From Megasphaera elsdenii DSM 20460 (GTDB lineage: Bacteria > Bacillota > Negativicutes > Veillonellales > Megasphaeraceae), in the NCBI RefSeq assembly GCF_003010495.1, contig NZ_CP027570.1, forward strand, positions 1,590,001 through 1,622,000: 32,000 bases of DNA. Reading direction: 5' to 3'. The position numbers and the translations under genes are program-made. Shown here in pieces: positions 3,307 through 31,934 of the stretch. The notes below the pieces were generated by a model. The model was given only the letters and a program-made list of their open reading frames with translations, did no database searches and was not told the DNA's origin. The stretch's first letter is position 1. Each line of letters opens with the position of its first letter.

Positions 3307-3315
3307 TATTGTGTG

Positions 3316-3351
3316 AAAAAAGAGGCTGTCGCATTAAGACAGCCTCTTTTT
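3316..3351 (+). terminator. Intrinsic terminator of tRNA-Val copy 1
   Basis: A-run, stem agaggctgtc/gacagcctct, T-run. Confidence 0.8.
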
Positions 3352-3472
3352 GAGTTTTAAGTTTGTAGTTTTTAGTTTGCAGCAAATGGTAAAAAATTAA
3401 AGCCAGCTTCTACAAAATATAAAGCAACCTCTCAGACCGCCTGAGGCGGCCAGCTCCCCTAAAAAGGGAGCC
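3352..3472. repeat. Mosaic repeat: gttttaa/gtttgta/gttttta/gtttgca heptads, AT hairpin, AC-rich arm, then double-hairpin element (3421-3472)
   Basis: Read directly. The double-hairpin element recurs at 6078, 7749, 31740 and 31806. Confidence 0.7.
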
Positions 3473-3983: not shown

Positions 3984-4060
3984 GGGCGGTTAGCTCAGTT
4001 GGTTAGAGTATCTCGTTGACATCGAGGGGGTCGATGGTTCGAATCCATTACCGCCCACCA
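3984..4060 (+). tRNA. tRNA-Val (anticodon GAC), second copy
   Basis: Identical to 3230-3306 except for one acceptor-stem base (c4051 versus t3297), which changes G-U to G-C. Confidence 0.9.
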
Positions 4061-4071
4061 TATTGTGTGCG

Positions 4072-4107
4072 AAAAAGGACTTGTCGCTATGCGGCAAGTC
4101 CTTTTTT
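4072..4107 (+). terminator. Intrinsic terminator of tRNA-Val copy 2 and insertion site of the group II intron
   Basis: A5, stem ggacttgtcgc/gcggcaagtcc, T6. The intron GTGCG starts 2 nt later. Confidence 0.8.
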
Positions 4108-4109
4108 AG

Positions 4110-6007
4110 GTGCGCCCGGCATGGGCGCACTCTAATGGGTGAAAGTCCCTAAGCCGCCCGGTAGCGGGAAGGCTATAGCCAGAACCAAGGGTGTCCATCG
4201 TGAGATGGAATCTGAAGGAAGGTCGAGGCAAATCTCTGGTCTGACGAACAGAAATCACATAAGGCTAGTCATGGGGATAAGGCCGCCTAACAGGTTGAAG
4301 TCCCATAGCTACACGGAACCATGAATAGTAGATGTGGCAGACACATGGAGAGAAAGAGTGCGTTCTTACCCGGGGAGGCCTCATGGACATGATGGTGCCA
4401 TATAGATTGGACATCATGGTTGAAATAAGATTTATCATGAGGAGTCAGCCGAGGCCATAGTACCTTATGGGCTATAGACCATGAGGAAAGGGCCGAATCC
4501 TAGGAGATGTTAGTTAATGAAAGTAACCAATCATGGAATGAAAGACAGAAAACTTCATCAAGAAGGCTGTCCACAAAAAGAGGTTGCGGAACAACCGGGA
4601 TATGTGGAAGCGTCTGCCCATGCGAGGATTGCTGAACACAACGACATCATTGCAAGCTTGCCAGCGGACAGTCTGTTGAAGCAGATTTTATCACGAGACA
4701 ACTTAAATGGTGCCTATAAGAAGGTAAAGTCTAATCGAGGAACCGGCGGGGTCGACAGGATGAGTGTAGATGAACTTCTACCCTACCTGCGGGAACATCG
4801 CCTGGACCTCCTTCAGCAAATACGGAATGGGAAATATAAGCCCCAGCCAGTCCGTCGGGTTGAAATACCCAAAGAGGAAAAAGGGAAATTCCGGAAATTA
4901 GGAATCCCTACGGTCGTAGACCGCATGATACAACAGGCGATTACGCAGGTTCTTGTGCCTATCTACGAGCCACAGTTTTCAGATAGCAGTTTCGGGTTCC
5001 GTCCCAAACGGGGCGCCCACGATGCGTTGAAACAATGCCAGGCCTATGCAGATGAGGGCTATGTCTACGTCGTAGACATGGACTTGGAGAAATTTTTCGA
5101 CAATGTCTGCCAAAGCAAATTGATAGAAGTTCTGTCAAGGAGCGTAAAAGACGGCCGGGTCATCTCGCTGATACACCAATATCTCCATGCTGGTGTTATC
5201 CGGCATGGGATGTTCGAACGAAGTGAACAGGGGGTTCCCCAAGGAGGGCCATTGAGTCCGCTCTTGAGTAACATCATGCTGAATGAGCTGGATAAGGAGC
5301 TGGAACGGCGCGGACATAAATTTGTCCGCTATGCAGATGACTGCATGATACTCTGCAAAAGCAGAAGAAGTGCCGAAAGGACCTTGGAAAGCATCACTCG
5401 ATATATTGAGAAGAAATTATTTCTCAAGGTGAATCGAAATAAGACGCACGTAGCCCACATCCGCTATGTTAAATATCTGGGATATGGCTTCTACCGAAAG
5501 AATGGAAAATGCCGACTCCGGGTGCATCCGAAATCCATTACTAAGATGAAAGACCGTTTGCGGTTTATATTGAAACGAAGCAATGGAAAAGGAAACGAAG
5601 TGAGAGCCCTTCTATTGAAACGATTCATAAAGGGATGGGTGAATTACTTTAAACTAGCGAATATGAAGGAACTGCTAATTCAAATTGACAGATGGATTCG
5701 ACGCAAAATACGAACCATATACTGGAAACAATGGAAGAAGGTACGGACGAAACACCGGATGATAAGCCAATACGGCGCGCCCAAGTGGGTAGTGTTGGAA
5801 ATGGCTAACTGCCGAAAAGGTCCGTGGCGAGCAGCGGCAATGCTGAACTCAGTTCTTACGAATAAAGAAATAGCCCGCCTTGGCTACATAACCATGACGA
5901 GCTATTACAAGCAAGTATGCGAAAACTAGGAAACCGCCGTGTACCGAACGGTACGCACGGTGGTGTGAGAGGTCGGGATTTCTACTCAGAAATCCCTCCT
6001 ACTCGAT
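4110..6007 (+). mobile_element. Group II intron, probably bacterial class C (IIC), with an intron-encoded RT/maturase
   Basis: 5' GTGCG at 4110. Domain V-like helix at about 5934-5965 with a 2-nt 3' bulge and CGC at the triad position. Domain VI helix with a bulged A at about 6001. Size is about 1.9 kb, the IEP has no En domain, and the insertion is right after an intrinsic terminator. The 3' boundary is good to about +/-5 nt. Confidence 0.85.
4517..5929 (+). CDS. ltrA: Group II intron reverse transcriptase/maturase (no endonuclease domain)
   Basis: 470 aa. RT blocks are present, including GVPQGGPLSPLLSN and the catalytic YADD (RYADDCMILC). The maturase X region is rich in W/K/R. There is no C-terminal HNH. 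Confidence 0.93.
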   Translation: MKVTNHGMKDRKLHQEGCPQKEVAEQPGYVEASAHARIAEHNDIIASLPADSLLKQILSRDNLNGAYKKVKSNRGTGGVDRMSVDELLPYLREHRLDLLQQIRNGKYKPQPVRRVEIPKEEKGKFRKLGIPTVVDRMIQQAITQVLVPIYEPQFSDSSFGFRPKRGAHDALKQCQAYADEGYVYVVDMDLEKFFDNVCQSKLIEVLSRSVKDGRVISLIHQYLHAGVIRHGMFERSEQGVPQGGPLSPLLSNIMLNELDKELERRGHKFVRYADDCMILCKSRRSAERTLESITRYIEKKLFLKVNRNKTHVAHIRYVKYLGYGFYRKNGKCRLRVHPKSITKMKDRLRFILKRSNGKGNEVRALLLKRFIKGWVNYFKLANMKELLIQIDRWIRRKIRTIYWKQWKKVRTKHRMISQYGAPKWVVLEMANCRKGPWRAAAMLNSVLTNKEIARLGYITMTSYYKQVCEN

Positions 6008-6175
6008 CAGTCAGCGGCTAGCAGTTAGCGAATGGTTTTAAATTTGACGCCATCCACTAAAAACTACAAATGCTGAGAAAGCAACCTCTCAGACCGCCTT
6101 TGGCGGCCAGCTCTCCTATGAGGAGAGCCTTTCGTCAAACATCAAGTCTCAAGCCTCAAGCATCAAAGACAAAGA
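6008..6175. repeat. Mosaic repeat: cagtcag/cggctag/cagttag heptads, AT hairpin, AC-rich arm, double-hairpin element (6078-6129), tcaag-type heptads (6139-6175)
   Basis: Same module order as 3352-3472, that is, the 3' flank of the other tRNA-Val copy. Confidence 0.7.
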
Positions 6176-7568: not shown

Positions 7569-7663
7569 GAACGCCCATGTAGGGGAGGCCCATGTAGGGG
7601 ACGCCCAGAGGGCGTCCCGCCGTCCGCCGTTCGCATGTAGGGGCGCCACGTGGGGCGCCCGCC
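7565..7663 (+). repeat. Cluster of REP-like units: two half units (7565, 7579) and two full GTAGGGG-hairpin-CCCGCC units (7594-7621, 7637-7663)
   Basis: Each unit is GTAG followed by a GC palindrome (gggacgcc/ggcgtccc and gggcgcc/ggcgccc). The first GTAG contains the sstT stop codon. Confidence 0.75.
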
Positions 7664-7705
7664 ATAGATTATAATGAATAACGCAATTCGCCGTTCGCAA
7701 AAGTA

Positions 7706-7743
7706 CCCTCGCATGACGATATTCATCATGCGAGGGCCTTTTT
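7706..7743 (+). terminator. Intrinsic terminator downstream of sstT
   Basis: Stem ccctcgcatga/tcatgcgaggg followed by a T5 run. Confidence 0.7.
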
Positions 7744-7748
7744 GTGTC

Positions 7749-7832
7749 AAAAGCAACCTCTCAGACCGCCTTCGGCGGCCAGCTCCCCTATAAGGGGAGC
7801 CGCTAGCCACGAGCCACGAACCACGAGCCACT
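7749..7832 (+). repeat. Double-hairpin element (7749-7801) followed by a cacgagc/cacgaac heptad array (7802-7832)
   Basis: aaaagcaacctctc + ccgcc-ttc-ggcgg + gctcccc-tataa-ggggagc, followed by the 7-nt units. Confidence 0.75.
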
Positions 7833-7866
7833 AAAAAAGCGTTGTCCGTCAGGACAACGCTTTTTT
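7833..7866. terminator. Bidirectional intrinsic terminator (A6, gcgttgtcc/ggacaacgc, T6)
   Basis: Symmetric A-run and T-run around a 9-bp stem. It lies 7 nt from the stop of the minus-strand gene at 7873. Confidence 0.8.
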
Positions 7867-7872
7867 CCACCC

Positions 7873-8082
7873 TTATTTTCCGCTAGCAGCGATGCAGTCG
7901 TTGAGGTCGGCGACGAGGGCGTCGACGTCGATGCCGTGAGCACCAGCGCCCTGGCCGATGGTTTCAAAGTGAGCAGCCATGCAGCCAATGCAGCCGAGAC
8001 CGTACTGCTGGAAGATTTCAATGATCTGCGGATATTTCTGAACGGCTTCAATGATACCCGTGTCTTTTGTAATCTGTGCCAT
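7873..8082 (-). CDS. DUF1858-type small redox-disulfide protein (hybrid-cluster-protein-associated family)
   Basis: 69 aa. Sequence I...IIEIFQQYGLGCIGCMAAHFETIGQGAGAHGID contains a CxxC. RBS aaggagg is present, and a TGaTATAAT extended -10 lies upstream on the minus strand (8147-8155). Confidence 0.8.
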   Translation of the reverse strand: MAQITKDTGIIEAVQKYPQIIEIFQQYGLGCIGCMAAHFETIGQGAGAHGIDVDALVADLNDCIAASGK

Positions 8083-31596: not shown

Positions 31597-31687
31597 ACTG
31601 AGGCCTCCTTAGTTAATCCTATTGTACCACCATTAGGAACCTCAGTTTGACTTGTCCTATTTATATGCTAACACCATACACGGTTTG

Positions 31688-31914
31688 CCGTGGTTCGTTT
31701 GCCGTAATGGAAAACGGGCTCGCTGGCGCATCGCCTTTACTAAAAGCAACCCCTCAGTCAGCTGTGCTGACAGCTCCCCTATTAGAGGAGCCTTGTTTAC
31801 TGAAAGCCTCCCCTAATAGGGGAGGTGCCGCGAAGCGGCGGAGGGGTTGCTTTTAATGGTAGCGATGCGCCAGCGAGCCCGTTTCGTAAACGAACCACGC
31901 CAAACGAACCACGG
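31688..31914. repeat. Imperfect palindrome of about 227 bp made of nested modules (gtggttcgttt heptads, aacgggctcgctggcgcatcgc, and two head-to-head double-hairpin elements)
   Basis: The arm 31688-31792 is largely the reverse complement of 31806-31914. The centre is near 31800. Confidence 0.8.
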
Positions 31915-31934
31915 CGCCCGCTTATGGGCGCCCT

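Follow-up and report, generated by a model that had tools for sequence, protein, structure and literature searches.

BoxC/PIT intrastrand-triplex motifs of E. coli and other bacteria were reportedly described by Hoyne et al. in 2000. A different kind of short bacterial repeat, the REP/REPIN sequence, consists of one imperfect palindrome, 20-40 bp long, with GTAG at its head. The BoxC, PIT and TMECO repeats have been known since the 1990s and form triplexes in vitro; their loci are unstable, and the repeats stand without a function, an origin or a partner protein (PMC4666352). The triplex class definitions and the TMECO intrastrand-triplex motifs used for comparison here are those of Holder et al. 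2015 (PMC4666352). In E. coli, the TMECO/BoxC repeats form two subtypes which pair only with each other and in inverted orientation, type A being joined to type B in 5 of 5 pairs, and the commonest TMECO type contains one mismatched triad (PMC4666352). The published TMECO pattern is CCCTCNCCC-N3-6-GGGNGAGGG-N3-GGGNGAGGG, with 9-nt arms and a 3-nt second loop (PMC4666352). The present analysis concerns a double-hairpin repeat found in a 32,000-nt stretch of Megasphaera elsdenii DSM 20460 (contig NZ_CP027570.1, positions 1,590,001 to 1,622,000 of the forward strand), hereafter the window, which belongs to a single-contig genome of 2.48 Mb with a G+C content of 52.8% (C1:1590001-1622000 of G000). 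The units of this family are very probably DNA-level repeats homologous to the ends of a cassette which carries a gene of the DUF559 family.

The unit consists of an 8-nt tag, AACCYCTC, followed by a GC-rich hairpin 1, which defines the subtype, and by a polypyrimidine/polypurine hairpin 2. A preliminary description of the window had claimed five copies of a double hairpin, and all five are present, each with two adjacent hairpins and the tag 5' of them. The variants it listed for hairpin 1 were recovered, namely (G)ACCGCC-nnn-GGCGG(CC) for the three single copies, GTCAGC-tgt-GCTGAC for the copy at 31743 and GCCGC-ttc-GCGGC for the inverted one, as were the compensatory changes in hairpin 2 (GCTCCCC/GGGGAGC; GCTCTCC/GGAGAGC at 6078; CCTCCCC/GGGGAGG in the inverted copy). 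Its coordinates mostly stood, with corrections of two starts to 7750 and 31743 and of the inverted copy to 31806-31853. The exact tag AAAGCAACCYCTC occurs in the window on the + strand at 3421, 6078, 7750 and 31743 and on the - strand at 31841-31853; allowing up to two mismatches, six matches were found against 1.18 expected, a number reached in 0 of 100 shuffles. Hairpin 2 is 6 bp long in the 3421 copy and has one mismatch (GAGGAGC) in the 31743 copy, and in the single copies the base of hairpin 1 carries an A.C mismatch. When folded as single-stranded DNA with energy models that treat Watson-Crick pairs only, all five copies gave, on either strand, exactly two hairpins with the tag unpaired (z-scores -3.0 to -4.5), and the G-rich complementary strand folded slightly better than the tag strand in 5 of 5.

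The repeat family is abundant in M. elsdenii and almost all of its copies are intergenic. Genome-wide, 25 exact tags were found, compared with none for the reversed-pattern control; nhmmer yielded 125 matches at E<=1, including 111 near-full copies at E<=1e-3, and a covariance model built from 75 distinct M. elsdenii copies (R1) recovered 119 copies. Only 14% of copies fell wholly within long open frames, vs 81% of random sites. Across the 75 distinct copies, 91.7% of cells pair, vs 76.0% in column shuffles and 41-51% in slid registers, and 6 of 13 base pairs changed on both sides, so that the structure-preserving variation claimed in the preliminary description is borne out on a far larger alignment. 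Three subtypes are set apart by hairpin 1 and by the closing pair of hairpin 2: subtype A (57 copies) combines AGTCAGC...GCTGACA with GCTCYCC/GGRGAGC, subtype B (17 copies) combines AGACCGCC...GGCGGCCA with the same hairpin 2, and subtype C (37 copies) combines CGGCC...GGCCA with CCTCYCC/GGRGAGG. Each of the 30 adjacent pairs consists of one A and one C unit in inverted orientation, 19 of them head-to-head (tags adjoining) and 11 tail-to-tail. Units of subtypes A and C are found alone, in inverted A+C pairs and in arrays; the B copies are solo in 17 of 17 cases, including the three single copies of the window. These units account for a large share of the hairpin-dense, strain-variable intergenic DNA of M. 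elsdenii.

The family is patchy within the genus, with 22 to >150 copies in seven genomes and 0-8 in the remaining 29. In a phylum sample of 150 genomes, just two others had R1 matches, one of them G106. The plasmid search gave one match, an A/C pair between thiG and thiH on the Haliovirga abyssi plasmid pHIC (90144-90243; L117), a megaplasmid of the Fusobacteriota; this pair is tail-to-tail, and no DUF559 gene was present within the 3 kb examined. A search of phages gave no match to the units.

The single DUF559 gene of the M. elsdenii genome (123 aa, 14 kDa) lies in the tag-to-tag spacer of a C/A junction within an array of A+C pairs, and in G007, G018, G026 and G106 the gene is placed likewise. 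Its product matched PF04480 with E = 9.9e-29 (99.8 bits vs a cut-off of 20.6), and its nearest solved relative was PDB 3HRL, an "endonuclease-like protein" (E = 1.6e-13). On these matches the nested gene is a DUF559 (PF04480) gene, encoding a predicted Vsr-like nuclease of the PD-(D/E)XK type with conserved D...ExD...QH residues. Strong DUF559 genes were identified in G000, G007, G018, G026 and G015, each with R1 matches on its flanks, and the first four loci are orthologous. In G015 the gene stands in a different context with diverged units; this genome has eight weak R1 matches, the best of which (42 bits) lies 600 nt from the DUF559 gene, with another 400 nt off on the opposite side. The DUF559 gene of G106 is likewise bracketed by R1 matches. 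At the orthologous locus G025 has a clean empty site, in which the flanks are 1 bp apart and the 968 bp of array plus gene are missing, with a short CC(T)C microhomology and nothing longer at the borders. A single 66-bp unit occupies the locus in G002 and a remnant in G022. Other head-to-head pairs whose interiors measure 350 bp or 2.1 kb yielded no decayed DUF559 gene in a tblastn search.

The same arrangement recurs among 80 loci of DUF559 homologues from Clostridia, Negativicutes and Anaerolineae; most of them are from Clostridia, and Pectinatus and Schwartzia are also represented. R1, built from M. elsdenii copies only, matched 186 times in these loci, at a density 18.6-fold higher within 100 nt of the open reading frame (ORF) than farther out in the flanks; a match so placed was present at 69 of the 80 loci. 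In the usual layout the start codon marks the end of a C-type unit on the - strand, and on the + strand an A-type unit begins at the stop codon or overlaps it, so that both tags point toward the gene. Across the homologue taxa the stem GTC...GAC of subtype A is kept, as is the contrast between A and C, and in Pectinatus and G015 the downstream place is taken by a unit with a B-like hairpin 1. Judged by this layout, the units look like differentiated left and right ends of one cassette, and the B copies of the window look like solo right ends. As a separate observation, in about 30 Clostridia loci (among L044-L115) the DUF559 frame extends some 27 nt into the downstream A-type unit, so that the stop codon lies within the repeat.

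The tag is related to hairpin 2 by a mirror repeat, its core CCYCTC being the mirror image of the pyrimidine arm CTCYCC. Read on the G-rich strand, the parts follow one another as pyrimidine arm, loop, purine arm (GGRGAG), hairpin 1 and GAGRGG, a layout that is, in terms of its sequence, that of a predicted class II (purine-motif) intrastrand triplex; the opposite strand would correspond to class IV. Of the 133 distinct units in the model alignment, 60 had T/T/A at triad 1 and 59 had C/C/G, and about six were exceptions. Cells obeying T·A and C·G between tag and purine arm made up 96.9% in register, vs 36-63% in slid registers and at most 78% in antiparallel orientation; counted by the tool, the triad fit was 97.2% vs 88.3% in shuffles. 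When mutual information was computed over all well-filled columns, the top two partners of the tag column were the two members of the predicted base pair (0.77 and 0.73, the next being 0.31), with a like outcome for triad 3. At six loci the two ends of one cassette are in different triad states. Variants which keep the rule include AATCCCCC with GCCCCCT/AGGGGGC, CCCCTTC with CTTCCCC/GGGGAAG (G015) and CCCTCTC with CTCTCCC/GGGAGAG on the Haliovirga plasmid, whose A/C pair thus keeps the mirror rule. A model-free search found the pyrimidine arm-loop-purine arm-hairpin-mirrored purine motif in the flanks of 70 of the 80 DUF559 loci; among 680 purine-arm hairpins there, 168 had mirror matches and 45 direct-repeat matches, vs no mirror match in 20 shuffles per locus. 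Copying cannot produce a mirror repeat, nor does such a repeat constitute a symmetric site for a protein on B-DNA; the natural explanation is therefore a fold of three strands or something that reads it. With moderate confidence, the mirror tag is considered to reflect a selected triplex-hairpin fold recognized by a nuclease.

According to the mechanism proposed here, each unit would be one end-module of a small cassette whose full form carries the DUF559 nuclease gene, with subtype C as the gene-upstream end and subtype A (and its variant B) as the gene-downstream end. In single-stranded or extruded DNA, the tag would lie in the major groove of hairpin 2 and form with it an intrastrand triplex of six to seven triads, hairpin 1 serving as the connecting loop, and this compact fold would be what the DUF559 nuclease recognizes and nicks. 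The approximately 119 solo units, inverted A+C pairs and arrays would be gene-less derivatives, kept or multiplied by DUF559 activity together with unequal recombination. We infer that the triplex would form in vivo, that DUF559 would recognize or cleave it and that single units could be mobile. The identification of DUF559 as the enzyme maintaining or moving the units, and the reading of DUF559 proteins as structure-specific nucleases whose substrate would be an intrastrand triplex of hairpin, linker hairpin and mirror tag, are offered as tentative proposals which fall short of probable.

Several observations weigh against this mechanism. At the 7750 site, ten strain-level loci (L122-L131), including the M. 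elsdenii record HE576794.1, contain a module of about 145 bp, composed of a terminator hairpin, the unit and 7-base repeats, in one, two or at least three tandem copies, as counted among strains with an identical DUF1858 protein. In one strain the module is swapped for a palindromic mosaic of 7-base repeats without a unit, and in another (L126) a DDE-type insertion sequence (IS) sits within hairpin 2. In related species the 7750 and 3421 sites are conserved, duplicated as larger modules or exchanged for other repeat modules; e.g. the 3421 element is kept at the orthologous site of G018, and other repeats take its place in G026. The variation observed is thus tandem duplication of a larger module or exchange for other repeat modules, orthologous copies are conserved across species with flank identities of about 91-94%, and the strain and related-species loci at these two sites showed no single-unit insertion that had clean borders or a target duplication; a clean empty site was seen only for the complete array with its gene. 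No replication strand bias was seen for subtype A (30:27) or B (9:8); subtype C was distributed 11:26, with an uncertain skew-based origin call. Furthermore, element-rich genomes without DUF559 exist, namely G002 (34-35 copies, 100% complete) and the incomplete G022 and G025, and G049 has three copies and no DUF559 gene. Because of such element-rich genomes, the gene is dispensable: DUF559 is not needed for the repeats to persist. The triad rule is also loose in M. elsdenii, where 83% of cells fit and T stands over G-C at triad 3 in 40 of 75 distinct copies; tag variant C accompanies C-G in 8 of 9 copies. The signal within this genome alone is weak, and the strong triad covariation comes only from the cross-taxon set. 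For that set, a short and quickly built DUF559 tree implied five or more changes of triad state at each end, a rough count of independent changes.

These observations bear on the leading alternative, which is regarded as unlikely, if less so than the others: the units would be host-level structural or recombination-prone selfish repeats without a dedicated enzyme, and DUF559 a homing-type passenger preferring the C/A tag-to-tag palindrome (GAGAGGTT/AACCTCTC), so that the association would reflect target choice and not an enzyme making or moving repeats. The precise placement of the DUF559 gene, always between two tags, would follow from such a preference, and 19 head-to-head pairs contain no gene; in some of these the tags abut and make up a perfect 16-bp palindrome. 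The persistence of the repeats in genomes without DUF559, the unequal recombination of larger modules seen in the observed variation, and the insertion of a 61-nt repeat and of an IS into hairpin 2 as well are all in keeping with a passenger. Only one site per genome is occupied, however, despite many apparently suitable empty pairs, and the A/C ends stay differentiated across phyla around the gene, resembling the left and right ends of one unit. The mirror-repeat constraint would still require a reader of the fold.

That the units act as RNA, i.e. as 3'-untranslated region (UTR) or intergenic structures which stabilize transcripts, pause or terminate transcription (as proposed for REP), or serve as small RNAs, is improbable. 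The two stable hairpins with compensatory changes would suit an RNA, many copies lie just 3' of genes, and the complement of the 3421 copy would fall in the 3' UTR of a - strand gene. Pyrimidine-motif triplexes can form in RNA; purine-motif triplexes do not (PMC4666352). Rfam gave no match at gathering score over the elements of the window, and none at E<=1 except a chance-level sau-19 hit beside one copy, in agreement with the preliminary description, which had recognized no known riboswitch or small RNA class. Units stand in both orientations relative to neighboring genes, and no T-run follows their hairpins. The 7750 copy lies between two terminators, as shown by the upstream terminator at 7706..7743 and the convergent one at 7833..7866. 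Few G-U pairs occur. Among non-Watson-Crick cells, A.C on the tag strand, equivalent to G.T on the complement, is three times as frequent as G.T on the tag strand (39:11 in this genome, 15:5 across taxa); in different copies the opposite strand is the one that the mismatches favor. Because of the missing Rfam match, the two orientations, the position between terminators, the lack of a T-run, the rare G-U pairs, the G.T mismatches on the G-rich strand and the patchiness in the genus, the units fit a reading as non-coding DNA repeats and not as RNA genes. Obligatory inverted A+C pairing, arrays and nesting around a nuclease gene also argue against an RNA. Of the two readings in the preliminary description, a structured RNA motif found no support, and a protein or transposase recognition hairpin is consistent with an interspersed, strain-variable DNA repeat that forms both ends of a DUF559 nuclease cassette. 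The preliminary description did not note the mirror relation between tag and hairpin 2, the family of about 119 copies in three subtypes or the nuclease gene nested among them. Caution is advised against annotating the M. elsdenii units as small RNAs.

Very improbable is the view that the units are ordinary miniature inverted-repeat transposable elements or terminal-repeat fragments of a known IS, moved by a DDE or Y1 transposase encoded elsewhere: the tags of an A+C pair do form terminal inverted repeats (AACCTCTC...GAGAGGTT) and the genome does encode DDE transposases and an IS200/RAYT-like Y1 protein (PF01797, E = 3e-38, one in-frame TAA, genome positions 766044-766403), but no R1 match lies near the Y1 gene, no transposase gene is flanked by units, no target-site duplication or matching IS was found, the GTAG-headed REPs are a separate family, phages gave no match and plasmids one, and the sole gene bracketed by units, here and at 69 of 80 other loci, is DUF559.

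The features of the window are compiled in Table 1. A simple promoter/terminator scan overlooked long-loop terminators which were visible by eye. The 3421 element sits between a tRNA with its terminator hairpin (+ strand) and the stop codon of a - strand gene.

Table 1. Repeat units and adjoining features of the window (positions are those of the 32,000-nt stretch).
Feature	Position	Strand	Description
B-type single element	3421..3472	+	Tag AACCTCTC; hairpin 1 GACCGCC-tga-GGCGGCC; hairpin 2 GCTCCC-ctaaaaa-GGGAGC
B-type single element	6078..6129	+	Hairpin 2 GCTCTCC/GGAGAGC; tag CCTCTC a perfect mirror, 6/6 possible triads
Terminator-like hairpin and T-run of upstream + strand gene	7706..7743	+	CCCTCGCATGA...TCATGCGAGGG CCTTTTT; immediately 5' of the 7750 element; within the unit duplicated among strains
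B-type single element (copy named in the preliminary description)	7750..7801	+	
Tag core CCTCTC of the 7750 copy, candidate third strand	7757..7762	+	Parallel to purine arm 7794-7799; one T over G-C triad off-rule
Hairpin 1 of the 7750 copy	7764..7780	+	GACCGCC-ttc-GGCGGCC; linker between tag and hairpin 2; A.C mismatch is a G.T wobble on the complement
Hairpin 2 of the 7750 copy	7782..7800	+	Pyrimidine arm GCTCCCC, loop TATAA, purine arm GGGGAGC
7-base quasi-repeats	7802..7832	+	GCTAGCC ACGAGCC ACGAACC ACGAGCC; immediately 3' of the 7750 element; unit number strain-variable
Two-way terminator hairpin	7833..7866	.	AAAAAAGCGTTGTCC-gtca-GGACAACGCTTTTTT; of the convergent DUF1858 gene (7873-8082, - strand)
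Composite palindrome around the A+C pair, 233 nt	31683..31915	.	Inner arms 31712-31755 / 31841-31884, 89% complementary, tags included; outer arms of 7-base repeats, 31683-31705 / 31888-31915
A-type element	31743..31792	+	Hairpin 1 GTCAGC-tgt-GCTGAC; tag AACCCCTC; left half of tail-to-tail A+C pair
C-type element	31806..31853	-	Hairpin 1 GCCGC-ttc-GCGGC; hairpin 2 CCTCCCC/GGGGAGG; tag CCCCTCC, 7/7 possible triads; right half of A+C pair

Other repeats are found beside the units. Runs of 7-base quasi-repeats (GCCACGA, GTTTGTA, CAAGYCT and GTTTGCC types) at 7802-7832, 3351-3383, 6136-6170, 31683-31705 and 31888-31915 lie between terminator hairpins and units or form the outer arms of long palindromes, and their unit number varies by strain and species. 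The 110 bp 5' of the 3421 unit (3313-3423; terminator hairpin, 7-base repeats, ...AAATGGTAAAAAATTAAAGCC...) are a repeat in their own right, which has many copies of 88-97% identity in related genomes and terminates precisely at the first bases of the 3421 unit. A group II intron (4100-6003) directly follows a tRNA (3984-4057), with Rfam D1-D4 matches at 4194-4365 and 4423-4493 and a 470-aa reverse-transcriptase-like ORF at 4517-5929; the B-type unit at 6078 lies about 75 nt beyond the intron end. GTAG-headed REP-like hairpins (ATGTAGGGGACGCCCAGAGGGCGTCCCGCC, ATGTAGGGGCGCCACGTGGGGCGCCCGCC), which belong to a separate family, occupy 7575-7690 just 5' of the 7750 unit. In several units, e.g. at genome positions 32677-32788, 1263742-1263854, 2050943-2051058 and 2466742-2466860, the pyrimidine arm of hairpin 2 contains or immediately adjoins a 61-nt repeat, of which the genome has 19 copies, and the IS of strain L126 sits at the same point; hairpin 2 may be an insertion hotspot.

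If the DUF559 cassette mechanism holds, DUF559 and its end-modules would represent a widespread, undescribed class of selfish or domesticated cassettes in Negativicutes, Clostridia, Chloroflexota and Fusobacteriota, with the enterobacterial BoxC as a form with a short linker. The missing enzyme and origin of the BoxC/PIT triplex repeats would be supplied, and natural selection would be seen to maintain a DNA triple helix. The present family extends the class of triplex repeats to a hairpin-linked form undetectable by the published searches, with base-triple covariation over many lineages as comparative evidence for selection on a three-stranded fold. The tight tie of the module to one small gene family, DUF559, gives BoxC-like repeats a candidate enzyme. 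In the papers searched, neither DUF559 nor ycjD was linked to repeats, repeats in Megasphaera were not described, and no statement was found that such a module forms the ends of a DUF559 cassette.

Among known systems, the pneumococcal BOX/RUP/SPRITE, Correia/NEMIS and ERIC repeats resemble the M. elsdenii family in being abundant, modular and foldable intergenic repeats, but they have no mirror-repeat constraint, no nested DUF559 gene and no sequence similarity to the units. IS200/IS605 ends are similar in that differentiated left and right ends arise from subterminal hairpins read as folded single strands, and gene-less derivatives occur; in contrast, the M. elsdenii cassette has neither Y1 transposase nor TnpB, its ends are mutually inverted, no replication strand bias was seen and the nuclease is of another family. 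The resemblance to REP/REPIN-RAYT systems and BIMEs lies in genomic behavior: short hairpin repeats with a conserved 5' tag, about 100 intergenic copies, and singles, inverted doublets and mosaic arrays. REP/REPIN-RAYT systems further share a single-copy enzyme gene flanked by inverted copies and a patchy distribution between related species. The M. elsdenii units differ in their tag (AACCYCTC, not GTAG), in having two hairpins plus a mirror repeat instead of one imperfect palindrome, and in flanking a DUF559 gene of the PD-(D/E)XK type instead of a Y1 (HUH) transposase.

The BoxC/PIT/TMECO repeats come closest to the M. elsdenii family among known classes. In E. coli, the DUF559 gene ycjD has a TMECO about 180 bp downstream and a partial copy at its stop codon; R1 gave no match at this ycjD/TMECO locus. 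Inspection of the same region of E. coli K-12 (L116, 1351100-1351760) further showed that about 40 nt of the ycjD 3' end are duplicated some 60 nt downstream of the gene (GGAGACGGTGCTGGAGAATATTC...), that the TMECO past the stop codon is of type A, and that the partial C-rich/G-rich motif overlaps the stop codon. The M. elsdenii units depart from the published BoxC/PIT/TMECO pattern, and they share its mirrored third segment (T·A:T, C+·G:C or G·G:C, A·A:T triads). The published searches limited loops to 6 or 10 nt, and therefore did not report this family. Its arms are 6-7 nt instead of 9, a 5-7-bp hairpin of 15-25 nt takes the place of the 3-nt second loop, and the sequences are unrelated. 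Common to both are the order of segments on the G-rich strand (pyrimidine arm, loop, purine arm, linker, mirrored purine arm; class II), the intergenic position in both orientations, the strain-variable loci, the frequency of one mismatched triad, and the division into two subtypes found singly or as inverted pairs of unlike subtypes, as in the 30 of 30 A with C pairs of M. elsdenii. Unlike in the BoxC/PIT/TMECO repeats, the module of the M. elsdenii family forms both ends of a DUF559 cassette.

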